Sequence record: PZ583739.1
DNA from: a phage
Length of the DNA stretch: 64,000 bases
Strand: one strand, 5' to 3'
In this document: piece after piece, positions 1-45,801 of the stretch
Position numbering within the stretch: the first letter of the stretch is position 1
Layout: the number at the start of each line of letters is the position of its first letter
Position numbers and translations under genes: made by a program
Notes under the pieces: generated by a model
Told to the model about the DNA's origin: nothing
Database searches by the model: none
The model's input: the letters and a program-made list of their open reading frames with translations, nothing else

Positions 1-1325
1 GTAGGGCCTTGTTTAGGAGCCGAATCATCATCAACCTCATACCAGCGCTGATTACCTTTCTTAACACCCATCTTGAATTTATTATAGTAGTTCTTATCAC
101 CATAACGAGACTTAAGCTGTTTGATTAACTGCAGCCCCATTTGAGCGAATTCTTCGGTCTCAACAACACCCAACATAAAGTCAGCTGTATGAGCAATACC
201 AAAGGATTCTGCGATGTCAGCCATATCAATCTCAGCTGCAACGTTCGCGCCCCTGGTTGTCTGCGCTGCAGTCCACAGGACCACATTTTTCTCGACTGCC
301 AGACCACGAAGTTCTTCTGCAACCATCTTAATCAGACCGTAACTATTTTCGGTAAACGTTTTCAGTCTTGAGCTTGCACAGATTGCCAGGTAGTCAACAA
401 TAATCACATCTGGTACAAACCCTTGCTTCAGCTTGTACTCGTTCAGTAATGCACGGAAGGTGTCCGCATGAGCACCGCCAGTTGGATATTGTTTTATCTT
501 CAGAGTCCCAAGAGTCCCGGAAGCACGCCATTTTTCCATCTTAGCTTTATATTCCGCCCATGACACATGACCTTCATCAATATCATCCAGAGATACATCC
601 AGCAAGTTGGCATCAATACGTTTGGCACATACTTCTTCAGCCATTTCCATGCTTATATAAAGCACATTATGACCAGTCTGAAGATAGTCAGCGGCTAACG
701 AACAAAGTCCAAGGGATTTGCCGACGTTCGTCCCGGCCAGTAAAACGTTCTCTGTACCGTACTCAACCCCACCCTTTGTGATTTTATTCAGGATGTTAAT
801 ACGGAACGGAACCTTCTTCGATTTGTTCAGATAAGTCTGGAATCGAGCTTCGTAATCGTTTAACCAGTCATGGCCCAGAGCGGAGTCAAAACAGATAGAC
901 AATGCATCGCGCATGATGTCGGGGATAGCACCAATATCCGGGATTCGTTTATCACGTTTATCTTTAGGAAGTTCGGCATTACTCTGGATTTCGATAATCC
1001 TGGATGTGGCATTGAACATCGCAGACTTCTGTACATACTTCTCGGTTTCTTTAACCAACCAGTCCTGGTCTTCTGGAGTATCGGCCAGGACTCCTAAGAG
1101 TTTCTTTGTGCCTTCATATTCGACTTCAGAAAGGTCAGAACTGTCGAGCGCGATATCAAGTGCAGTCTTAGTTGGTACCGCTTGATATTCTTTTACGTGT
1201 TCGTTAATCGTATTAAAAAGGGTCTTTGCAGGACCCTTTTCAAAATATGTGTTATTCAGATATGGCCAGACTTTAACAAAATATTCCTTGTTAAAGAGTA
1301 GCTGGGATAAAATAGTTTCTACCAC
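1..1325 (-). CDS. 41: Replicative DNA helicase gp41 (DnaB-like), N-terminal ~441 codons; 3' end lies beyond the window
   Basis: Hand translation of minus strand from GTG at 1325: MVETILSQLLFNKEYFVKVWPYLNNTYFEKGPAK...MFNATSRIIEIQSNAELP...IPDIGAIPDIMRDALSI, collinear with T4 gp41 N-terminus. Absent from ORF track because it runs off the edge and starts with GTG. Start overlaps stop of gene 40. Confidence 0.85.
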   Translation of the reverse strand, partial: MVETILSQLLFNKEYFVKVWPYLNNTYFEKGPAKTLFNTINEHVKEYQAVPTKTALDIALDSSDLSEVEYEGTKKLLGVLADTPEDQDWLVKETEKYVQKSAMFNATSRIIEIQSNAELPKDKRDKRIPDIGAIPDIMRDALSICFDSALGHDWLNDYEARFQTYLNKSKKVPFRINILNKITKGGVEYGTENVLLAGTNVGKSLGLCSLAADYLQTGHNVLYISMEMAEEVCAKRIDANLLDVSLDDIDEGHVSWAEYKAKMEKWRASGTLGTLKIKQYPTGGAHADTFRALLNEYKLKQGFVPDVIIVDYLAICASSRLKTFTENSYGLIKMVAEELRGLAVEKNVVLWTAAQTTRGANVAAEIDMADIAESFGIAHTADFMLGVVETEEFAQMGLQLIKQLKSRYGDKNYYNKFKMGVKKGNQRWYEVDDDSAPKQGP

Positions 1326-1663
1326 TTCCACCACCTCTTTTTCATTTTAATCTTATCAATTTCATCTTGTATTTGCATTGTAACACACTTTTCTACATGC
1401 ACAGCAAGCTCCGCTTTGCGGTCTTCGGAAGGGGTGCCGAAATCAACTGAAACTTTTCCAGATGGTTCAATTTTAATTCCGGTTACGTACACAATGTGAC
1501 TGGACCCATCAGGGAGTGATAACAGAATTTCCTGTCGTACAGTTCCCATGGATTGCCGGATAATCTCCAAACTTTTTTCGTAGTAAGGTACAGAAGGAGC
1601 CTTAGCTCCCTCCGCATCTTTCTCGAAATTATCTAAATCAGATAAATCGATATCATTCATCAA
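1319..1663 (-). CDS. 40: gp40-like small protein (head vertex assembly factor in T4), 114 aa
   Basis: Position between uvsX and 41 as in T4; size matches; sequence identity not verified. Confidence 0.5.
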   Translation of the reverse strand: MMNDIDLSDLDNFEKDAEGAKAPSVPYYEKSLEIIRQSMGTVRQEILLSLPDGSSHIVYVTGIKIEPSGKVSVDFGTPSEDRKAELAVHVEKCVTMQIQDEIDKIKMKKRWWKW

Positions 1664-2831
1664 GGTCTTCCATCATATCTAAATCGTTTTCGATATCTGC
1701 AGCGGACGGTTTTGTCTTACCTTCAGGAGCAGAGTATTTTTCAACCTTGGAGGCAATAAGCGCATCAACTTCGGCATCAACAACAGCATTGCTATCGATT
1801 GCACCCAGTTGGTAATGGCGTTTGATTGCATCACGGAAAGGTTCGTGTTTAAACAGCGGCCCCCAGAATTCGGTGCAGTTAGTATCTTTTGCGCGCCATG
1901 ATTTTTCTTCGCGGACCATTTCCCCGGTCTCAACATCAAGATATTCACGGTTATACCAACCAACTTTTGGTTTAACCACAAATCCGATTTCTATTGCCAT
2001 ATCAAGCAGGCCAGAATACGGGTCAATACCGCCATCGAATTTTACATCAATGAAGAATTTACTTTTCTCTTTGACCATACGAGATTTTTCGGCGTTCAGA
2101 ACAAATTGGAAGCCTTCAAGTTCTTTACCAGTTTCTTTAATCTGACGTTTACCGATAATGAATACAGTGTCCGCGGAATACATAACACCTGTGCCACCGG
2201 TCATAACGGTTTTACTGTACATCTCAATCGTCTCGATTGTATGGTTAACCGCGACACAAGGAATATCCTTGATACTAAAATAAGGGGTAACAATACGGAA
2301 CAGAGATTTCAGGGATTTAGCACGAGTCATATCGCCAACGACTTTTTCGTTCATCGCATCTTCTGTTTCTTTTTTCGACGCCATGTTACCGATTGAGTCA
2401 ATAAAGATAATGACTTTTTCACCACGCTCAATTGCTTCAAGCTGGTTAACCATATCAACTTTCAATTGTTCAACCGACTGGATTGGTGTATGGATAACAC
2501 GCTCCGGGTCTACTTTCATTGCACGAAGATATGCTTCTGTGATACCAAATTCTGAATCATAGAACAAACAGATTGCGTCGGGGTATTTGTTCATATATGC
2601 AGAGACCATCGTTAAACCCATATTGGATTTAAAGTGTTTTGACGGACCAGCAAAAATAGTCAAACCTGACTGCATACCACCATCTAGTGCACCGCTGATT
2701 GCAATGTTCAGCATCGGGATTTTTGTACGAACTACATCTTTATCATTAAAGAACTTGGACTTGGTAAGAGTCGCAGTCATTTTGGATGTAGAAGCTTTAA
2801 TCAAACGGGATTTCAAATCTGCAATAGACAT
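1653..2831 (-). CDS. uvsX: UvsX recombinase (RecA/Rad51-like)
   Basis: 392 aa; MSIADLKSRLIKASTSKMTA...GLTIFAGPSKHFKSN (Walker A)...near-collinear with T4 UvsX over full length. Confidence 0.96.
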   Translation of the reverse strand: MSIADLKSRLIKASTSKMTATLTKSKFFNDKDVVRTKIPMLNIAISGALDGGMQSGLTIFAGPSKHFKSNMGLTMVSAYMNKYPDAICLFYDSEFGITEAYLRAMKVDPERVIHTPIQSVEQLKVDMVNQLEAIERGEKVIIFIDSIGNMASKKETEDAMNEKVVGDMTRAKSLKSLFRIVTPYFSIKDIPCVAVNHTIETIEMYSKTVMTGGTGVMYSADTVFIIGKRQIKETGKELEGFQFVLNAEKSRMVKEKSKFFIDVKFDGGIDPYSGLLDMAIEIGFVVKPKVGWYNREYLDVETGEMVREEKSWRAKDTNCTEFWGPLFKHEPFRDAIKRHYQLGAIDSNAVVDAEVDALIASKVEKYSAPEGKTKPSAADIENDLDMMEDLDE

Positions 2832-2884
2832 TCATTTTTTCCATAGGCACCATTATATTTTTCTCACAGGTTTAAGATAGGATA

Positions 2885-2911
2885 ATTATATCACTGTATT
2901 TTCAGAGCAAT
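2885..2911 (-). promoter_or_regulatory. Candidate MotA-dependent middle promoter upstream of uvsX
   Basis: Minus strand reads TTGCTCTGA (MotA-box-like) then 11 nt then TATAAT. Confidence 0.3.
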
Positions 2912-3173
2912 TAACGATTGAATCCACGATTAATTGCACGTTCAACAATCTTCCGGGTCTGACGTTTGTCCCACCAGTACATAAAACCAATACCAAATGC
3001 AGACAACAGCCATAGGCTAATCAATAACATACCAATCATAATATTCTTCTCGCAGTTCAGAGCAATTTAGTAAACGTTACCACGTTTCCAGTTTTCTTCA
3101 TTCAAATGCTTATTACGCTTTTCTAATAGCAACAAACCAATTACTGTTACAACAATCAGAAGTAATAATAACA

Positions 3174-3677
3174 TCAGTTAATACCTTGGCGTGCTTTCTC
3201 TTTAGCCACACATTTATTAATATAGCTCAGACGGTTTTGAGCAGAACGCTGATACATATCGCGGTACTCATTAGCTTTTGGAGAACCCGTCTCCGCTGCC
3301 TGATAAGCTTCTGCGCGCATGATGTTTATCTGCATATTGATATATGACATGCAGACCTGTGAAATCTGGTTAACAGTATCCAGGTCATTTTGTCGCTTAG
3401 TTTCTGCTTCCAGCTTGGCAATGATTTCGTCATGCTTCGCAGCTTGCTCGCGTTTGTACTCAATTTCTTGTTGAGCATATTTCGCGCAGTTGTTTCCACA
3501 TTGATTGTTGTCGCGTTTGTAGATAAGTCCAGTACCGCCTTTGAAATCAAAGGAACCATTATGCACCTGACGGTCTGCAGCAATTCGCGCTTTACCAATC
3601 TCGTTGGCATTAACAACATCACCCTGGTAAGCACAACCAGATAGCAGCATAACAGCTGCGATAGCTAACTTTTTCAT
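3174..3677 (-). CDS. Predicted lipoprotein, 167 aa
   Basis: N-terminus MKKLAIAAVMLLSGC (signal peptide + lipobox); RBS GAGGAAA upstream of ATG at 3677; ORF-track start at 3704 is a longer extension. Confidence 0.55.
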   Translation of the reverse strand: MKKLAIAAVMLLSGCAYQGDVVNANEIGKARIAADRQVHNGSFDFKGGTGLIYKRDNNQCGNNCAKYAQQEIEYKREQAAKHDEIIAKLEAETKRQNDLDTVNQISQVCMSYINMQINIMRAEAYQAAETGSPKANEYRDMYQRSAQNRLSYINKCVAKEKARQGIN

Positions 3678-3827
3678 TGTATTTTCCTCAATTAAAACAT
3701 TCATAGCGGGCTTGGAGCCCCAAAAATACCCAACCCAAAATTAAAGTTGGAATCATATGCGGAGTCATTATTGCCCAATAGATTGACATACTAAAAAATG
3801 CAATCAGTACAATAATTGTAATTATCT

Positions 3828-4070
3828 TCATTTTGCTTCCTTGATGATAATTACTTGTGCGTTTGATTTACGTTCAGCAACGAGTGCCCAGATAAATGCA
3901 ATAAACCATCCGACCATTGTCCAACCTAACAGGAGGTTAACAAAGAAGATTCCACAATTACTTTTGGTACCACGCAGCAGCGCGATAATCCACGGCAGAA
4001 AATATGCCAGTGCAGCCAGGAAGAAAGAACCCGCACCAAGAACAACAGTACCCGCAATTAATGTTTCCAT
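3828..4070 (-). CDS. imm: Small two-TM membrane protein, Imm-like by position (superinfection immunity)
   Basis: 80 aa, two hydrophobic helices, lies immediately upstream of gene 43 where T4 imm lies; homology not verified. Confidence 0.45.
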   Translation of the reverse strand: METLIAGTVVLGAGSFFLAALAYFLPWIIALLRGTKSNCGIFFVNLLLGWTMVGWFIAFIWALVAERKSNAQVIIIKEAK

Positions 4071-4139
4071 TTTAATATCCTTAAGTTATTCATCAGTTGA
4101 TGAGGTAATCATACGGCAATCCATTGCCGTTGTAAACAC

Positions 4140-6854
4140 TTAAAAGTCAAACATATCAAAAAGAGTTGCTTTCTTTTCGTAATCAACCTTTGCAGCTTCA
4201 GAGAAACCTGTTAATGGCTTAACAAAAGTCTTCTGGAACAGTATGTTGTAGTCCATCCACTGCAGAACCTGGTCACGGATTTCAATCGGGAGTTCAATCC
4301 CAGATGGCCATGCAATCACGGTTTCACCAAACGGGTTACCGACTTTAAGAGGAAGTACATACACCTTTTCCCCTTCCATGATTTGTGGAACAGTCTTCAG
4401 ACCTTTAGTTGCACGCATATATGCAAGCACACCTTTGATATGAGCCGGGCACTTAAATCCAGGGAAACCGCCTTCATTATATTTCTGGATGTTGTTAACC
4501 GATGATACACCTGCGATGGTCATGTAGTTAAGCTCATTAAATTCCTTATTGAATTCCTTGAAGTATGTCTGCAGAGATTCTTCACCTTCTTGCAGCATAC
4601 GGCGGATACATTCTTTCAGAGCTTTCTGACATGCCTTTGGAGTACTCGACTTTTGAGTTTCCAGACCCATGATTTTCAATTTCGGAACAGCATATCGTGT
4701 GCCTTCCATATCGTACACGTTCAGTGCATAACGCTTCTTCGCCGTCCAGAATCCACCCACACCCTTAGAACCCAGCGGAGGACATGCAATCGCTTCACGG
4801 TCCATAAACATAAGGTGCTGTTTGTTGTTCATGTATTCAGCCAGCTCACGGAAAGCTTTATCGATTGCCGGTTCCAGACGGTCTTTCGCAAACTTGTCCA
4901 TGAAGTCAACCAGGTGGTTTGTATCACGGAATTTAGATTCGCCACCAACCTTTTTAATCAGGTTATCGCACTGGATATAAATGGAGTCAGTATCGCCATA
5001 GAACACATAAGTTTCGCCGCTTGTCCCACAGACACTATCGAAGTATTCGTTAACTTTACGCTCAATCCACTGCAATGCAAGTTGTCCGAAAGATGTAATC
5101 GCGGTTGCATTTCGCAGGTCAAAGTAACGGAACCAGATATTGCCCAGAGCGCCATAACAACTGTTGATAAGCAGTTTACGGTTAATCTGTGCGGTCATGC
5201 CTGCAACTTCTTCCATCTGCGCTTTGTACAACATACCATTCAGGACTGTTTGATTCAGACCATGCAGGGCCGTTTTCATATTGTCATCAAAGTCATGACG
5301 ATAATCAACTTCTGGTTCGGTTGTGCCAGTTCCTGGATTACGCAGAGCTTCCTTAATCAGTTCACCATTACGTTGAGCCGCAAGCATATAGCCTTTGTGC
5401 TCTTTACGCTGATTAAACACCTTGGTGACTTCTGTCGGAATAATACCCGCAACATCTTTAAAATACATCATACCATTTGGAGCACAACTAAATGTATCAG
5501 ATGGACGGTCAGCAGTTCCTGCGATGTATTCATACATCGGCGCTGGGGCAAATGAACCGGCAATCGTTTCTGGACTGATATTAATCTGTCGGATGATGCT
5601 TGGATACAGAGATGTTAAGTCACAGCTCATCACATATTTGTACGCGTTCGGAATAGGTTCCTTAACAAATGCACCAGGGAACGATTGACGAACATGCGAT
5701 TTGGTTTCCGGAATGACTTTGTTTTGAGTCTTCAGGCTGTTAAAGATAATCGCATCCCAAGTTTTGATTGGGCTGAATACAGACTGAATCTGCATTTTTG
5801 CGTAATAACCCATTGACTGACTCAGGTTAATAAACTGCCGCTTACGGTCAATCTGCACAACACGATAAACGTCGATGATGTTATAAGAAATATACCGCTG
5901 GTGATTTGATTCACGCAGTTTAGAAATCGGACCATCATACGGGAGTTTACCAACACCCAGTTCAGATTCCGCAACATAATCCAACGAATAAGACGGTTGG
6001 TTTGTGAAGCTGAACTTTTTATACAGGTCCAGATAATCCAGAACAGAGATACCCAGAATCTGAATGATTTCTTGTTCTTCACCAAAGCCGTTGTTAATGA
6101 CCTTAACTTTTGTACGACGATGTGGGCTCAGACGTTTTGCCGTAGCTTCACCAAATACATTTTTAAGACGGTTGTAGATATATGGAATATCAAACTTCTC
6201 GATGTTCCAACCGGTTAACATAACCGGAGTTTTCTCGTTCCAGAATACCAAATACTGCTGGAGCATTTCTTCTTCTGAATCGAAAGCCATATAAACAATT
6301 TTTTCCAGGATTTCTTCAGGGACTTCATCACCACCGTCTTCCTGCAGCTTAGCAGCAATATCAATAGACCATTGCTCCACAGTGGCGTATGGTGAGCCCA
6401 AAAGGTCAAAGACATAGAATTTATCGTCTACCGAATCATAGTGCGTCAGGGCATCAATAGGGTGACGTGCTTCAGACGGTTCAGGGAACCCATCAGGAGA
6501 TGTCACCTCGATATCGAAGTTAGCAACACGGATTTTACTTGAATCATATTTGATTTCGTGTGGGTAACGGTCGGACAAGTATGCGAGTTTAAAGTCATCC
6601 ATACCCATAACTTCGAGGCCCATGTCATTCATTCGCTTCATCCACTGGGATGCATCACGCATGGAATCGAATTCTTTTTTCACACAACCTTTATTATAGA
6701 TGTCTGTATACTTTGCAGCCTGGCCTTCCCGGGCGTGCATAAACAAGCATGGGGCATAAGGGATTTCACGAACACGTTCATGACCATTCTTGTCAATATA
6801 TCGTTCGAGTAGGTTGTCACCGATTTGTTCGATAGTTAAATAAAATTCTTGCAT
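4140..6854 (-). CDS. 43: DNA polymerase gp43 (family B, with 3'-5' exonuclease)
   Basis: 904 aa; exo motifs FDIEV, Pol motifs DLTSLYPSII, KLLINSCYG, YGDTDS; C-terminal ...KKATLFDMFDF as in RB69/T4 gp43. Confidence 0.98.
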   Translation of the reverse strand: MQEFYLTIEQIGDNLLERYIDKNGHERVREIPYAPCLFMHAREGQAAKYTDIYNKGCVKKEFDSMRDASQWMKRMNDMGLEVMGMDDFKLAYLSDRYPHEIKYDSSKIRVANFDIEVTSPDGFPEPSEARHPIDALTHYDSVDDKFYVFDLLGSPYATVEQWSIDIAAKLQEDGGDEVPEEILEKIVYMAFDSEEEMLQQYLVFWNEKTPVMLTGWNIEKFDIPYIYNRLKNVFGEATAKRLSPHRRTKVKVINNGFGEEQEIIQILGISVLDYLDLYKKFSFTNQPSYSLDYVAESELGVGKLPYDGPISKLRESNHQRYISYNIIDVYRVVQIDRKRQFINLSQSMGYYAKMQIQSVFSPIKTWDAIIFNSLKTQNKVIPETKSHVRQSFPGAFVKEPIPNAYKYVMSCDLTSLYPSIIRQINISPETIAGSFAPAPMYEYIAGTADRPSDTFSCAPNGMMYFKDVAGIIPTEVTKVFNQRKEHKGYMLAAQRNGELIKEALRNPGTGTTEPEVDYRHDFDDNMKTALHGLNQTVLNGMLYKAQMEEVAGMTAQINRKLLINSCYGALGNIWFRYFDLRNATAITSFGQLALQWIERKVNEYFDSVCGTSGETYVFYGDTDSIYIQCDNLIKKVGGESKFRDTNHLVDFMDKFAKDRLEPAIDKAFRELAEYMNNKQHLMFMDREAIACPPLGSKGVGGFWTAKKRYALNVYDMEGTRYAVPKLKIMGLETQKSSTPKACQKALKECIRRMLQEGEESLQTYFKEFNKEFNELNYMTIAGVSSVNNIQKYNEGGFPGFKCPAHIKGVLAYMRATKGLKTVPQIMEGEKVYVLPLKVGNPFGETVIAWPSGIELPIEIRDQVLQWMDYNILFQKTFVKPLTGFSEAAKVDYEKKATLFDMFDF

Positions 6855-6939
6855 TTGATTTCCTTTATAGTCGAGTGATTGACTTTTGTTTTATGACTTG
6901 ACGCTATTATACTACAAAAGGGACCGAAGTCCCTTTGCT

Positions 6940-7167
6940 TTAAATTTCTATTGTACGACGTTCGATAGTCGGATTACCATTTTCATCTTTAGTTCTAACC
7001 ATAGCCTGGAAGACTCTCTGACCAGGATGCAATAATTTATTGAGTTCCTTTTGAAATTCTATTTGAAGTTCTTCGGAAAGGTCAAAAATAGTTTGAGTTG
7101 GGGAAAGTCCGTATACTTCTTTAAGGCGTTCACATGTTTCAATTTCATGCTTCATATCAATTACCAA
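6940..7167 (-). CDS. Hypothetical protein, 75 aa
   Basis: ORF between gene 43 and regA, co-directional; no recognisable motif. Confidence 0.4.
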   Translation of the reverse strand: MVIDMKHEIETCERLKEVYGLSPTQTIFDLSEELQIEFQKELNKLLHPGQRVFQAMVRTKDENGNPTIERRTIEI

Positions 7168-7525
7168 TTGTATATTTGGCTACGAGCTTCCAGTCGTCTT
7201 TTTGTTTGAATGAGATAACACGGAAGTTGTTTGTTACTGCGAACAATTCATTATGCTCTTCTTCTTTGATAGCAATTAAGCCCCAGTCTTCGAGCAGTTG
7301 AGCAATGGAATCACGGCGCTGATAGTCTTCGCCGTCAATATCCACCTGACGACCATCCATGCGCAGCATTTCTTTGAAGTGAACAATATAGTAACGACCT
7401 TGCTTTTGGAGGATGTGGCAGCTCTGGTACAGTACACGGTCTTTATTATTTGCGATGCCCATACGGGTCAGAGTTTCTTTAACTTTCAGGAAGTCTTCAG
7501 GTTGCTTTAATGTAATTTCAATCAT
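7157..7525 (-). CDS. regA: RegA translational repressor
   Basis: 122 aa; MIEITLKQPEDFLKVKETLTRMGIANNKD...NNFRVISFKQK, near-identical to T4 RegA. Confidence 0.96.
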   Translation of the reverse strand: MIEITLKQPEDFLKVKETLTRMGIANNKDRVLYQSCHILQKQGRYYIVHFKEMLRMDGRQVDIDGEDYQRRDSIAQLLEDWGLIAIKEEEHNELFAVTNNFRVISFKQKDDWKLVAKYTIGN

Positions 7526-41856: not shown

Positions 41857-42440
41857 TTACGGCATTCCTCAATAAAAGAGTTCAATGTATTTTTCTTATT
41901 GATATCGTCATATAGCTTTTTAACTTTAGAAATACGAAAAGGTACTTCAATAGCCATAGTCCATAAAAATGATGCAATAAGTCCAACAGCAGCAGAAGAA
42001 AGGCACGCGCCCATTACAGCTACAGGTGCTTCATTTTTACCTGTCAAGAAAAACAACAGGATTGGTAAAAATAAGATTCCAGTCCACGCATAAAACCTGG
42101 AACAAATTAACTTATCAAATTCATCTTTCCAGGTACGAAATCCATATTTCTTGCTATAAGAAATTAATGGGTCGGGTGTCTGTTCTTTGAGTGGTTCTGG
42201 TTGATACCCATTAATGATGTATCCCATTTTATATTCCTTAATTAAAAGCTCTTTAACATGACGATTGCATCGCGACCAATCAACATTTTCCACCTTGATT
42301 CCTTCATCACCATCATCAAGGTTCGCCCAATATTTTTTGGTAATCATAAATTCATCTCTTGATACAATTATACCTGTATTTTCTGCCCGGCGGATGAAGT
42401 TTACATCAACACCCATACAACCGGGTTCATAAAGGGCCAT
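41853..42440 (-). CDS. Membrane protein with soluble N-domain, two TM helices and C-terminal ...FIEECRK tail
   Basis: 195 aa; hydrophobic helices ILFLPILLFFL and VAVMGACLSSAAVGLIASFLW; tail motif shared with 45448-46676 proteins. Confidence 0.45.
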   Translation of the reverse strand: MALYEPGCMGVDVNFIRRAENTGIIVSRDEFMITKKYWANLDDGDEGIKVENVDWSRCNRHVKELLIKEYKMGYIINGYQPEPLKEQTPDPLISYSKKYGFRTWKDEFDKLICSRFYAWTGILFLPILLFFLTGKNEAPVAVMGACLSSAAVGLIASFLWTMAIEVPFRISKVKKLYDDINKKNTLNSFIEECRK

Positions 42441-43126
42441 TACCAGCCCTCCATAGGGAATTCCAGATATACTTGAGCATTAACGCGGATTTCATTTGTA
42501 ATCTTTTTAACACGGTCGGTATTACGAGACACACGACCAAACCAGCGCCAACCGTTACTTACTGCACGAGAACCTGTATGCCATGTCTGCCAATCAAACT
42601 GGAGCAACGTGCGGTCAGGAGCATCCCACTTGGTTAATTCATTGGACTCAATTTTTTCCAGAACTTCTTTATGCCACTGGCGATAGATAAGTTCGCCTTC
42701 AGGAATCTGACTAAATTGGGCAGTTCCGGTCGCAAAATAAGTAGGACACACATCAGCGTTAACAAGACCAAGAATATGTTCAGAATGGTAACGAGGATTA
42801 TCATAATCAGGTTGCCCTGCAGTAATAAAGTGTTGACCAACCGGAATATCCTGGCGCGGTACATCATCATGGTGATAACCTGGGATAGCAGGATACCAAC
42901 CAGGCATTAACATATGTACACGAGAATCGAATACGACATTTTCATTAGTCCAATCAATCGGAAGATTGGCAATAAAACTACGAGTGATTGGGCCGCCTTT
43001 ATCCCAAGCAAAACTCAAATCGCAGTTAAAGAACATTGGTTCATTTTTGATTTGATCGTTTTGAACATCGTGAGCAAAACCACTTACGGCACGAGCTCGG
43101 CTATTAAACACTTTAGAACTATTCAT
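42440..43126 (-). CDS. Hypothetical protein, 228 aa
   Basis: Trp/His-rich ORF; TIR AATGAGGAAAATATT-ATG. Confidence 0.5.
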   Translation of the reverse strand: MNSSKVFNSRARAVSGFAHDVQNDQIKNEPMFFNCDLSFAWDKGGPITRSFIANLPIDWTNENVVFDSRVHMLMPGWYPAIPGYHHDDVPRQDIPVGQHFITAGQPDYDNPRYHSEHILGLVNADVCPTYFATGTAQFSQIPEGELIYRQWHKEVLEKIESNELTKWDAPDRTLLQFDWQTWHTGSRAVSNGWRWFGRVSRNTDRVKKITNEIRVNAQVYLEFPMEGW

Positions 43127-43185: not shown

Positions 43186-44145
43186 TTATTTTGCGAAAGG
43201 ACGAATTAAATGTTGGTTAGCTTTAAAACGTTTAACATAGTCTTCGTGCCCCAGGGTGTTGTACATATTAACCACTTCCTGGTAATGTTCCCAGGCATAC
43301 TCACGGAACCATCCAGAAGTAATGGAGGTGCAGACTTTTTCCAGCGCAATATGGAAGCTCACGGATGGAGAGATATTGAACTCATTAGGAACCTGCGAAC
43401 GCTCCAGAGCGAGCACACATGCTTCTTCATAAACCCCTGCCAGTTTAATAACATCAGGGAGTGCTTCAAATTTTTCACGCGAGGTCATGACTTCTGAATC
43501 ATCCTTCATATAGAACTTATATGCAGGCTTATCAGCAAGCGCCACGGCCTCGTGGATGGAGTCATGGTCAAGGGTATAGATTGTATCATTAAAGAAAGTT
43601 TTCTTGCCCACGTCTAGTTTAGGGTGACTGTATGACAGTGTCTCTGCCTGACGCTGCAGCATGATTTTCTGCAGTTCATCATTAAGAACAATACCCTTAT
43701 TGCGAAGGTAATTAATATGACTCATGGTCTTCAGGAAGAATGGATTGTTCTTCAGGTAACGATGAGATAATTTAATTGCCAGACAAATATCAGGAGTTGC
43801 CCAGTAAAAACCTGTAAGACGATCTTTTTTAATATGATTTTCAGCATATTTCAGGAGACGATAACTTGAGGTGAAATCTTCGTCTTGAAGCTCACCAGTA
43901 ATTTCTCGTACGTTGGTCAGGGCACGGACAATATAAGCTTCAAAATAGGTTTCTTTGCCATTGTACATACATTTAAAAGCTTGGACGTTAGGGTTATCCA
44001 CAGGAACATGAGCACCGAACATACGTGCTTTAAAGTGGTTCCAGGAGCCTTGGTCAGCGATAAAGTCCCAATCAGAGTTTTCAATTTTCTGACTTTCAAT
44101 CAGACCAGCGTTATGTAATGCACGAGAACCAATAACTAACATCAT
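43186..44145 (-). CDS. Hypothetical protein, 319 aa, possible nucleotidyltransferase fold
   Basis: N-terminal IGSRALHNAGLIESQKIENSDWDF loosely fits GS...DxD; TIR AATGAGGAAAATATT-ATG. Confidence 0.45.
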   Translation of the reverse strand: MMLVIGSRALHNAGLIESQKIENSDWDFIADQGSWNHFKARMFGAHVPVDNPNVQAFKCMYNGKETYFEAYIVRALTNVREITGELQDEDFTSSYRLLKYAENHIKKDRLTGFYWATPDICLAIKLSHRYLKNNPFFLKTMSHINYLRNKGIVLNDELQKIMLQRQAETLSYSHPKLDVGKKTFFNDTIYTLDHDSIHEAVALADKPAYKFYMKDDSEVMTSREKFEALPDVIKLAGVYEEACVLALERSQVPNEFNISPSVSFHIALEKVCTSITSGWFREYAWEHYQEVVNMYNTLGHEDYVKRFKANQHLIRPFAK

Positions 44146-44159
44146 AATATTTTCCTCAT

Positions 44160-44326
44160 TAGTAAAGACGAGTTACTTCATATTTTCCAAGTGCCGATTT
44201 TTTCGCTTCAATTCGTGAGGCAGCAAGATTGGCGGCCTCTAGTGAAGAAAATTGAACCACTTGAGAAGTATTCTGTCTTACTCCACCTTGCGGGTGAGTG
44301 ACAAAAACAATAAGAACATTATACAT
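44160..44326 (-). CDS. Hypothetical protein, 55 aa
   Basis: Hand translation MYNVLIVFVTHPQGGVRQNTSQVV...; same TIR AATGAGGAAAATATT-ATG; directly downstream of promoter 44355-44383. Confidence 0.3.
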
Positions 44327-44383: not shown

Positions 44384-44429
44384 CTAAATTTCTGCACATA
44401 AGTCCTCCTATCACATCCTTGTGATAATT

Positions 44430-44654
44430 TTAGCAGCTACTCGGGTGCCAGATTTTACCGTCAGGTTGAGCAACAAAGGTGCGACCAGCGTCTTCGCCAT
44501 AGCAAGAGCTGTACAACCAGTCTTCGAGACGAACCTCACCATCATATTCGTCAAGCTCAATACCGAAATCTTGAGCGTTAGCCATATCTTTTACTTTCTT
44601 ATACAATGCAGCCAGTTCAAGTGCTGCTTTTTCTAATTCATTAATATCAGACAT
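44430..44654 (-). CDS. Small protein, 74 aa, C-terminal ...KIWHPSSC (divergent member of the WVSSSxxC family)
   Basis: N-terminal helix plus C-terminal W-x-x-S-S-C tail; first of four tandem paralogues. Confidence 0.45.
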   Translation of the reverse strand: MSDINELEKAALELAALYKKVKDMANAQDFGIELDEYDGEVRLEDWLYSSCYGEDAGRTFVAQPDGKIWHPSSC

Positions 44655-44663
44655 TTTTATTCC

Positions 44664-44861
44664 TTAGCATTCGTAAGAGGAGGACACCCAAGAGGTACCA
44701 CTAATTGTAATACAACCATTATAAAGCGTGATATGTCGTTCTAGGTCACGAACACCATCGATATAGATATCAGCTTCTTCGCGTTCTTCTTTGCAAATCT
44801 GGATAACGTTTTCAATAGCTGCCGCAGCAGTACGGATTGCACAATCTAATTCACGAGACAT
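44664..44861 (-). CDS. Small protein, ~65 aa, C-terminal ...SWVSSSYEC
   Basis: Trimmed to ATG at 44861 with RBS AAGGAA; tandem paralogue. Confidence 0.45.
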   Translation of the reverse strand: MSRELDCAIRTAAAAIENVIQICKEEREEADIYIDGVRDLERHITLYNGCITISGTSWVSSSYEC

Positions 44862-44869
44862 AACATTCC

Positions 44870-45151
44870 TTAACATTCAGAAGAGGAGGACACCCAACCG
44901 CCTTTTTCCAGGTCAGTTGTATAGTCATGAGTATTAACAATAGCCCATTCAGGATGGCCATGTTCTTCCCAATGAGCAAGGTCGGCTTTCAGGGCGCCAG
45001 GAGAATAATAGTCACCGCCCATACCGCGAGCAGGGTATATATTAAAATGAGTCTCATATTTGTTTGCAATTTCCTCGGCACGACGAATAGCTTTATGGAT
45101 GTCATTTACTGCGTTAGCCAGTTCTTTATTTTTACGGTAATCATTCATCAT
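44870..45151 (-). CDS. Small protein, 93 aa, C-terminal ...GGWVSSSSEC
   Basis: Tandem paralogue; helical N-terminus. Confidence 0.45.
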   Translation of the reverse strand: MMNDYRKNKELANAVNDIHKAIRRAEEIANKYETHFNIYPARGMGGDYYSPGALKADLAHWEEHGHPEWAIVNTHDYTTDLEKGGWVSSSSEC

Positions 45152-45160
45152 AGAGTTTCC

Positions 45161-45451
45161 TTAGCACATTGCCGAAGAGGAGACCCAAGCACCAACTGTA
45201 ACGACACCGTTTTCAACTTCGCCGCCGTTGTTTTCAATTTCATCTTTAAACCACTTGGAGCATTCATAACCGACAGGATAATATGTACGGCCTGAACCAT
45301 AATCACCGGTACCGAATTGGATACCGTATTCATCTGCGATTTCTTCGCAGTGTTTTTCAATTTCAGAGGTCTTATTTAGAAGAGAATAGATAGCTTTTTC
45401 TGCAGATTTTTCATCATAATACTTGGGGATAGCAATTTCAATTTTATTCAT
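45161..45451 (-). CDS. Small protein, 96 aa, C-terminal ...GAWVSSSAMC
   Basis: Tandem paralogue. Confidence 0.45.
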   Translation of the reverse strand: MNKIEIAIPKYYDEKSAEKAIYSLLNKTSEIEKHCEEIADEYGIQFGTGDYGSGRTYYPVGYECSKWFKDEIENNGGEVENGVVTVGAWVSSSAMC

Positions 45452-45801
45452 GATTTACATTCCTTAATAAAGGTTTCAAGGTCATTACGTTTTGTTTTGT
45501 CTAGGAACTTATTATACTCAGCCATTGCTGAAGCATATCTCTTCCGACTAGGAGCATTCAAGGCGTTTGTGTGACAGATATCATACACAACAGGGATAAA
45601 ATAAGCCACAACAGCCGGAGCAATTATCATAAAGAAGCCCATATCAATAGGCATGACTCCCTCGATTGCAGCCATAACCGTGGTCATTACCAGACCAACC
45701 AAACCGCCAAGCATGGCGGTGACAATCCCTAATAATAAACTGGCACCAATATCATATTCAGCCAATTGATAAACATGTGATGCAAGACTAGGCCGTTCCA
45801 T
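45448..45801 (-). CDS. Two-TM membrane protein with C-terminal ...FIKECKS tail, 117 aa
   Basis: ATG at 45801 with strong RBS AAGGAGG; hydrophobic helices; tail motif shared with neighbours. Confidence 0.45.
   Translation of the reverse strand: MERPSLASHVYQLAEYDIGASLLLGIVTAMLGGLVGLVMTTVMAAIEGVMPIDMGFFMIIAPAVVAYFIPVVYDICHTNALNAPSRKRYASAMAEYNKFLDKTKRNDLETFIKECKS

Follow-up and report, generated by a model that had tools for sequence, protein, structure and literature searches.

The closest described counterparts of the phage locus reported here are of two kinds. One comprises protein-nucleotidylylation pairs such as GlnD-PII, GlnE-glutamine synthetase, and MntA-HepT (MNT/HEPN), in which an enzyme with a G-S...D-x-D motif is encoded beside small protein partners; Pol beta-type nucleotidyltransferases are recognized by the signature hG[GS]x9-13Dh[DE]h. 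The other comprises clusters for ribosomally synthesized and post-translationally modified peptides (RiPPs), among them the lanthipeptides with their Ser/Thr...Cys core. We analyzed a 64,000-nucleotide stretch of phage DNA (record PZ583739.1; here called the window), in which four minus-strand genes lie back to back at positions 44430 to 45451. They encode small proteins with a common C-terminal tail that ends in cysteine, and they are followed on the same strand by a gene for an enzyme-like protein with the Pfam domains DUF7277 and DUF7275. Together, the small proteins and the DUF7277/DUF7275 protein look like an undescribed two-part phage module.

The locus shares its arrangement with both kinds of system, in that a G-S...D-x-D protein is encoded beside small proteins, and one to six small genes with a Ser/Thr/Cys C-terminal segment stand immediately 5' of one enzyme gene. 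As in the nucleotidylylation pairs, a Tyr/Gly loop is conserved in most family members and hydroxyl residues are conserved in all. However, homology to GlnD-PII, GlnE, or MntA-HepT was not detectable. The acceptors in those systems are tyrosines, whereas the conserved site here is a C-terminal W-x-S-S-x-x-C carried by up to six paralogues. The HEPN motif R-x4-6-H was not seen by eye in the partners or the enzyme. Unlike RiPP precursors, the small proteins are folded domains of 65 to 110 amino acids (aa), as judged from the AlphaFold2 (AF2) model described below, and unlike in lanthipeptides, Ser and Cys are only 0 to 3 residues apart, a distance that in most cases is too small or varies too much to allow lanthionine rings. 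Pfam searches of seven neighboring genes in the window and of the called genes of related loci found no LanB/C/M/KC, YcaO, radical-SAM, protease, or exporter domain. The small proteins also recall the DNA mimics Ocr, Arn, and ArdA, being small, strongly acidic, and cytoplasmic in a pre-replicative context, but there is no similarity of sequence or fold, and those proteins lack an invariant C-terminal Cys tail and a conserved enzyme neighbor. By analogy, the module may work most like a protein-nucleotidylylation pair or a RiPP cluster, yet it would belong to none of these groups. We rate it as outside every characterized kind of system, a rating that reflects the lack of a characterized relative and not demonstrated new chemistry.

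In order of transcription, the four genes encode proteins of 96, 93, 65, and 74 aa (Table 1). An earlier reading of the window (the original prediction) had described them as tandem minus-strand genes with Cys-ending tails, and their coordinates, frames, and tails all proved to be as described; in particular, all four tails are in frame. The window holds 668 open reading frames (ORFs) with 40 aa or more; Cys is the last residue in 14 of them, and the tail motif occurs in these four and no others. No ORF with the motif was found in 200 shuffles of the window or in the whole T4 genome. A chance origin of the four tails is excluded. Each TAA stop codon is embedded in TAAGGA, which forms the Shine-Dalgarno sequence of the next gene, and the intergenic gaps are ~9 nucleotides (nt); the start of the 96-aa gene overlaps the stop codon of e.3 (ATGA). 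The 65-aa gene could be read from an upstream ATG at 44876, which would extend the product to 70 aa. Its orthologues start at MSRELDC, and the internal start is supported because the match to phrog_4882 spans residues 6 to 70 of the 70-aa ORF.

An exhaustive HMMER search of 1.84 billion representatives (E ≤ 0.001; clusters at 50% identity) showed the extent of the family. It yielded 157 clusters, nearly all of 65 to 145 aa with the match reaching the last residue; one match of 1,446 aa is probably spurious. Of 151 proteins inspected, 137 end in Cys, and some of the others carry one extra residue. The tail can be written as G-x-W-x-[S/A/P]-S-[S/T]-x(0-3)-Cys-COOH. All of the 144 proteins that carry the motif have the first Ser (144/144), which is followed by Ser in 135 and Thr in 9 and preceded by Ser, Ala, or Pro. 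The median length of these proteins is 87 aa, their mean net charge is -7.4, and 90 contain just that single Cys. In the family consensus, an N-terminal amphipathic helix (...A-E-x-I-A-D-E-x-G-x-x-F) is followed by a Y-G-M-G-G-T-Y-Y loop, an acidic linker of variable sequence, and the tail (E)-G-x-W-x-S-S-S-x-x-C. In some members, W-x-S-S-(x)-C recurs within the linker; subfamily E contains it twice. The longer members have no extra Pfam domain.

Five subfamilies, A to E, are recognizable across the arrays of phages VR7 and RB69, Klebsiella phage P545, and Edwardsiella phage PEi20. The original prediction had taken the four window proteins for paralogues with a shared tail and dissimilar N termini. 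The shared tail was confirmed, and the dissimilarity holds for two of the proteins. The 96- and 93-aa proteins are homologous over their full length, with a common helix and a YG-x-G-x-x-YY loop, whereas the 65- and 74-aa proteins have no demonstrable homology to the main family once the tail is removed. In hhalign comparisons with the main family, subfamily D scored 98.5% even without the tail; C scored 94.6% with the tail and 6.4% without it, and E scored 84.8% and 20.8%. Subfamilies A, B, and D are thus clearly paralogous, whereas C and E have the tail and a helix in a similar position in common with them, and any deeper homology is unproven. An AF2 model of the 96-aa protein, built from a 15-sequence alignment, has a predicted local distance difference test score (pLDDT) of 89, with less confidence in the last six residues. 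After a long helix (residues 14 to 42), the chain forms short strands, another helix, and a small sheet and closes with a short helix at its end; no solved structure matched the model.

Looking for an existing annotation with a known function, we found no Pfam family for the small proteins (best matches of 11 to 16 bits, against cutoffs of 23 to 27) and nothing relevant in NCBIfam. The significant matches were to phrog_899 (A, B, and E) and phrog_4882 (C), neither of which has an assigned function. These are clustering labels with no motif description or context, and neither the tail motif nor the link to DUF7277/DUF7275 is recorded there. Literature searches returned no paper on phrog_899, the RB69 ORF names, or DUF7275/DUF7277, and nothing relevant on the YGMGG motif or on a C-terminal cysteine in combination with a nucleotidyltransferase. 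We concluded that the products of the four genes are small, acidic proteins of the cytoplasm and belong to one phage-restricted family defined by its C-terminal tail.

The order of the module is conserved: one to six tail-protein genes come first, and one enzyme-like gene follows on the same strand. The family genes lie upstream of the DUF7277/DUF7275 gene in the window, VR7, RB69, P545, and PEi20. For distant family members on metagenomic T4-like contigs, the enzyme-like gene is directly downstream in five of six distinct contexts. The module also occurs in phages that are not T4-like, namely, phAPEC8 (Stephanstirmvirinae; three members), Pseudomonas phage SYP, Ralstonia phage RSP15 (Ackermannviridae), and Acinetobacter phage Acj61. 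In Stenotrophomonas phage YB07, the family genes are downstream of the enzyme-like gene instead. We also approached the neighborhood from the enzyme side, by retrieving 80 IMG/VR loci with an alignment of the enzyme; the tail family had no part in their selection, and family genes on the same strand were counted up to a distance of 4 kb. Of the 80 loci, 74 had such a gene (1 to 6 per locus), almost always upstream. Hand inspection added one locus, giving 75/80, and showed another to be cut off upstream. When the enzymes were clustered at 65% identity, 35 of 40 informative clusters had a family member. Among 185,579 species genomes, there were only six loci, mostly on contigs of metagenome-assembled genomes, three of them with members upstream. 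Neither the family nor the enzyme is present in T4. The conserved neighborhood is strong evidence for a two-component functional module.

Several loci carry further features beside the enzyme-like gene. The homologues in a Streptomyces phage, a Gordonia phage, and Vibrio phage K408 lack the tail family and are each followed immediately by some other small acidic gene, at 4130-4822, 4100-4390, and 4114-4479 of the respective loci. The three products of these genes share similarity near the C terminus (approximately ...TGYY/R-DSW/Y... and ...V-x-P/K-x-x-K-x-IT-x-Y), and they may be an alternative partner family. In one locus of a lineage without tail-family genes (L087), the DUF7277/DUF7275 gene is split into two ORFs (4004-4930), which fits a module that decays when its partner is missing. 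The module of Acj61 lies within a few genes of ribose-phosphate pyrophosphokinase-like (Prs-like) and nicotinamide phosphoribosyltransferase-like (NAMPT-like) genes, and the DUF7275 gene of K408 is near Prs-like and NAMPT-like genes with no family member nearby. These stretches cover 4669-7378 of the Acj61 locus and 1-2663 of the K408 locus. The gene pair resembles phage genes for the reconstitution of NAD (nicotinamide adenine dinucleotide), which may point to a function connected with nucleotides or NAD.

The array and the enzyme-like gene are likely expressed together before DNA replication. A match to the T4 middle-promoter pattern, with a MotA box, falls within the 3' end of e.3, some 60 nt ahead of the first family gene, and the nearest matches to the late-promoter sequence TATAAATA are more than 4 kb away; it is the proximity of the one and the distance of the others that make pre-replicative expression likely. 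The middle-promoter pattern has 13 matches in the window, against 4.4 expected.

The enzyme-like partner combines two domains. Across 32 diverse N-terminal domains, the only invariant columns are G6, S7, D25, and D27 (h-h-G-S ... D-h-D-h-h), and a conserved Glu (E69, in most) follows in a strand-like E-x-E-I-A-W segment. DUF7277 agrees with the nucleotidyltransferase signature at the level of the motif only, with a spacing of ~9 to 17 between G-S and D-x-D and a third carboxylate expected ~40 residues downstream. Two GenBank submitters independently labeled homologues "nucleotidyltransferase." The C-terminal domain has the invariant groups K..SH, HD..H, EE, ER, and TS, together with many basic residues. 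Its invariant residues H128, H194-D195, H198, and E240/E241 recall HD hydrolases with an atypical spacing, and DUF7275 had no match to a Pfam HD family. Because no sequence or profile search confirmed the fold of the enzyme, we infer from the motif that the protein is nucleotidyltransferase-like.

Any account of the module has to explain an invariant, probably exposed tail with two hydroxyls and a thiol, the repetition of the tail motif, the variable bodies and copy number, and the strictly upstream position. The reading that we favor, tentatively and as quite possible more than as probable, is one of an enzyme and its substrates, in which the nucleotidyltransferase-like protein would bind to the tail and then modify it. 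We infer a physical interaction in which the DUF7277/DUF7275 protein would recognize the exposed C-terminal tail, and a covalent modification that would consist of nucleotidylylation of the hydroxyls at the invariant Ser and the Ser/Thr position. The terminal Cys could serve as a second reactive group. The divergent bodies of the paralogues would then diversify the modified products into several effectors or decoys, made before DNA replication and serving host takeover or antidefense. Interchange of Ser and Thr at one position of the tail would be typical of a hydroxyl that is acted upon, and the recurrence of W-x-S-S-(x)-C, both within some linkers and within subfamily E proteins, fits a modular site of recognition or modification, and not an element of the fold. 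The original prediction had suggested that a Ser-rich tail ending in Cys could mark a site of modification or targeting, a possibility that the conserved enzyme-like neighbor strengthens indirectly.

Several points weigh against this reading. Gene adjacency by itself cannot separate a substrate from a regulator, and the link to the enzyme is a presumed one. The sixth contig with distant members (L023) carries two of them and no enzyme gene in its remaining 1.3 kb, and five enzyme lineages have no member nearby, four of these being the most divergent homologues (those of the Streptomyces and Gordonia phages, Vibrio phage K408, and an Actinoplanes chromosome). The putative assignment to the nucleotidyltransferases comes from a short motif. 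No Pfam family of the NTP_transf type matched any of the 14 enzyme homologues scanned, NCBIfam gave nothing significant, and neither the full-length nor the N-terminal profile matched a sequence or profile from the Protein Data Bank. In hhalign comparisons, the enzyme scored 0.3% against KNTase, with its D-x-D aligned to SDIEMMC of KNTase, and 0.1% against AadA; its AF2 model, made from a single sequence, was unusable (pLDDT of 38). The known Pol beta-type protein nucleotidylyltransferases GlnD, GlnE, DrrA, and MntA modify Tyr and not Ser or Cys. Because anywhere from 0 to 3 residues separate the Ser pair from the Cys, a Ser-Cys chemistry of fixed geometry is doubtful.

The same conserved neighborhood would be expected if the tail were a noncovalent docking peptide and the small proteins were adaptors, regulators, or antitoxin-like inhibitors of the enzyme, with the common tail inserted into the enzyme and the variable bodies steering it to different targets or restraining it. 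Several paralogues with one common tail and divergent bodies would suit a shared docking motif, and the invariant basic residues of the C-terminal domain (K125, H128, K139, and R249) are opposite in charge to the acidic partners. We consider this explanation somewhat unlikely, given that the invariant Ser, the Ser/Thr position, and the terminal Cys look reactive, unlike a plain epitope, and that small genes in variable copy number upstream of an enzyme gene resemble arrangements of substrates or precursors. Alternatively, the small proteins could be independent early effectors in antidefense or host takeover, with a tail that binds a common host target or places a thiol and a carboxylate in a host metalloenzyme; their adjacency to the enzyme gene would then reflect coregulation in an accessory island. 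Small size, strong acidity, a pre-replicative promoter context, and location in a hyperplastic region are all in keeping with such a role, as are the difference in copy number between close relatives (five in VR7 and four in the window) and the Prs-like and NAMPT-like genes, which adjoin the module in Acj61 and the DUF7275 gene without it in K408. Nevertheless, the adjacency persists across phage families with no other shared synteny and is recovered from the enzyme side by itself (35/40 lineages), T4 has lost or never gained both genes together, and mere islands would not hold order and strand so strictly. Independent effectors are therefore, in our view, an unlikely explanation.

Two further explanations concern what the tail itself does. 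If its Cys were a metal or redox ligand, several chains, possibly of different paralogues, could share a Zn or Fe-S site or disulfides and form a hetero-oligomer. That 90 of the 144 members have exactly one Cys, at or beside the C terminus, and that as many as five or six orthologous subfamilies occur side by side would agree with this idea, which we nonetheless regard as very unlikely: many phages carry one member only, the invariant W-x-S-S part is left unexplained, a second ligand motif is absent, and the cytoplasm disfavors disulfides. The original prediction had also raised the possibility that the conserved element is RNA and couples translation; CCUCC in the tail codons would then pair with the next Shine-Dalgarno sequence. 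CCUCC is indeed present in the 93- and 65-aa genes (TCC TCC TCT), but the 96-aa gene has CUCCUCU, and the tail of the last gene (WHPSSC) has no such stretch. The window does contain a 33-nt unit repeated at 91% and 70% identity, and CCUC pairs with a downstream AAGG/GGA in two of four minimum-energy folds. However, CCUCC is confined to phages of the Gaprivervirus/Dhakavirus type and is missing from the orthologous tails of RB69, P545, and PEi20. The tail serines of orthologues are encoded by TCC, TCT, TCG, TCA, AGT, and AGC, while the W, S, S, and C remain fixed. The RNAs of the four junctions fold no better than shuffled sequences (z = 0.06, 1.40, 0.72, and -0.18), and the motif also terminates genes that have no coupled gene after them. 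A translational-coupling element is effectively ruled out by Ser codon variation across both codon boxes and by the fold statistics, and we give it next to no probability. Because Ser codons switch, CCUCC disappears, and the folds are unremarkable, the tail is conserved as amino acids and not as RNA: it is selected at the protein level. The nucleotide-level conservation of the 33-nt repeat was not seen in other genera, and the best reading of the repeat is that the paralogues share codon preferences or have undergone local gene conversion.

The array segment matches Yersinia phage vB_YenM_P8 and Escherichia phages VR20, VR26, and VR7 with 95 to 97% identity; these belong among the T-even relatives of the Gaprivervirus/Dhakavirus type. 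The arrays of VR7 and RB69 stand between e.3 and e.2, in line with the originally predicted placement in the hyperplastic e-region. Since e.2 and e.3 abut in T4, the whole block is an insertion in this region. The original prediction had not recognized the family from T4, and a six-frame scan of all 168,903 bp of T4 (NC_000866) with both hidden Markov models (HMMs) and the tail pattern agreed, finding no ORF with the tail and no DUF7275 homologue. The scan gave one weak match to the N-terminal helix, in tk.1 (E = 0.01); T4 NrdC.11 is unrelated to the enzyme-like protein (insignificant in hhalign).

The arrays of close relatives differ in content. That of VR7 has five genes, ORF142c to ORF138c, whereas the window has four and no equivalent of VR7 ORF139c. 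This gene (...GFWYNSSMSC), a member of subfamily D, sits between C and E in VR7, at 4565-4792 of the VR7 locus, and the corresponding position in the window is 44654-44664. The repeated TAAGGAA..AAAATG junctions and the tails could drive the gain and loss of cassettes by recombination. Subfamily A has orthologues in VR7, RB69, P545, PEi20, and phAPEC8. RB69 keeps three subfamilies, with A split into two ORFs: RB69 ORF139c is the N-terminal part, and ORF138c carries the tail (...GAWVSSPALC), with one Ser lost. The two ORFs span 3679-3894 and 3884-3985 of the RB69 locus, and the split reflects either a frameshifted pseudogene or a sequencing error. Subfamily B, represented by the 93-aa protein, is the most widespread type, with tblastn matches in 285 phage records. 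A segment of the subfamily E protein, YGEDAGRTFVAQPDGKIWHPSSC, locally resembles YGHGWIAGKDGKRWHPC of Fil, a cell-division inhibitor of phage 186 (PF10893/phrog_816), but the Fil segment is internal and not C-terminal. With a score of 14 bits (E = 0.04) against a gathering cutoff of 25 bits and 0.2% in hhalign, we rejected a relationship and treat the resemblance as a lead only.

Table 1. Features of the tail-protein array and its surroundings in the window
Feature	Coordinates	Strand	Length	Details
Subfamily A member	45161..45451	-	96 aa	Loop GDYGSGRTYYP; tail GAWVSSSAMC; phrog_899, E=5e-23
Subfamily B member	44870..45151	-	93 aa	Loop GMGGDYYSPG; tail GGWVSSSSEC; phrog_899, E=8.9e-20; family HMM, E=2e-23
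Subfamily C member	44664..44861	-	65 aa	From MSRELDC; tail TSWVSSSYEC; phrog_4882, E=3.2e-36
Subfamily E member	44430..44654	-	74 aa	Internal DWLYSSC and terminal KIWHPSSC; phrog_899, E=2.3e-9
Partner gene, DUF7277 + DUF7275	43186..44145	-	319 aa	Pfam PF23942, E=2e-26; PF23940, E=1.5e-75; phrog_2141
ORF between array and enzyme gene	44159..44326	-	55 aa	phrog_20278, no assigned function; not a family member
Gene downstream of enzyme gene	42440-43126	-	228 aa	phrog_1843; RB69 ORF132c-like; kept in T-even relatives
T4 middle-promoter-like site	45511..45535	-		MotA box TGCTTCA, 12 nt, TATAAT; consensus match only
DNA repeat (tail codons + TAA + GGAA Shine-Dalgarno)	44659..44691		33 nt	Copies 44865-44897 (91%) and 45156-45188 (70%); repeat search

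Two neighboring genes were considered as a third component of the module and rejected, both being confined to T-even relatives. For the ORF between the array and the enzyme gene, phmmer matched only VR7 and P8 among the loci fetched, so that it is restricted to close relatives; the gene downstream of the enzyme gene has no Pfam or NCBIfam match. Directly 3' of the last family gene, there is a 7-bp hairpin, TATCACA-AGGA-TGTGATA, at 44409-44426 (minus strand), with an identical counterpart in VR7. Lacking a U tract, the hairpin does not qualify as a classical terminator. After the hairpin, a sigma-70-like TGTACA/TATCAT pair is present at 44383-44355.

Current annotations of these genes point elsewhere. 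GenBank records of P8, UPEC01, vB_EcoM_005, and ABTNLsp5 name the 74-aa product "major capsid protein," the 93-aa product "tail completion protein," and the product of the DUF7275 gene "baseplate hub subunit"; in the same records, genes overlapping e.3 and e.4 are called "head outer capsid protein" and "sulfurtransferase." We disregarded the structural names because they are implausible for early-region proteins of 74 to 93 aa. In P8, the genes concerned span 587-3564 of the locus. These product names are clearly erroneous, and they continue to spread. Annotation could follow a simple rule that is independent of mechanism, based on the invariant tail and the strict gene order, and such labels would thereby be corrected.

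The hosts of the module include T-even relatives, rV5-like phages, a member of the Ackermannviridae, jumbo-sized contigs, and other phages, but not T4. It is possible, although we regard it with some doubt, that large lytic phages of many families carry an undescribed protein-modification system, in which one enzyme acts on the tails of one to six coencoded acidic proteins and yields nucleotidylylated or otherwise processed early effectors or decoys, for example, against host immunity or nucleotide/NAD signaling. If this is true, it would be a new phage-encoded system of post-translational modification with its own family of substrates or partners. Two Pfam domains of unknown function and two functionally unassigned PHROG families would thereby gain a role, and a block that recurs in the hyperplastic region of T-even phages would be explained.

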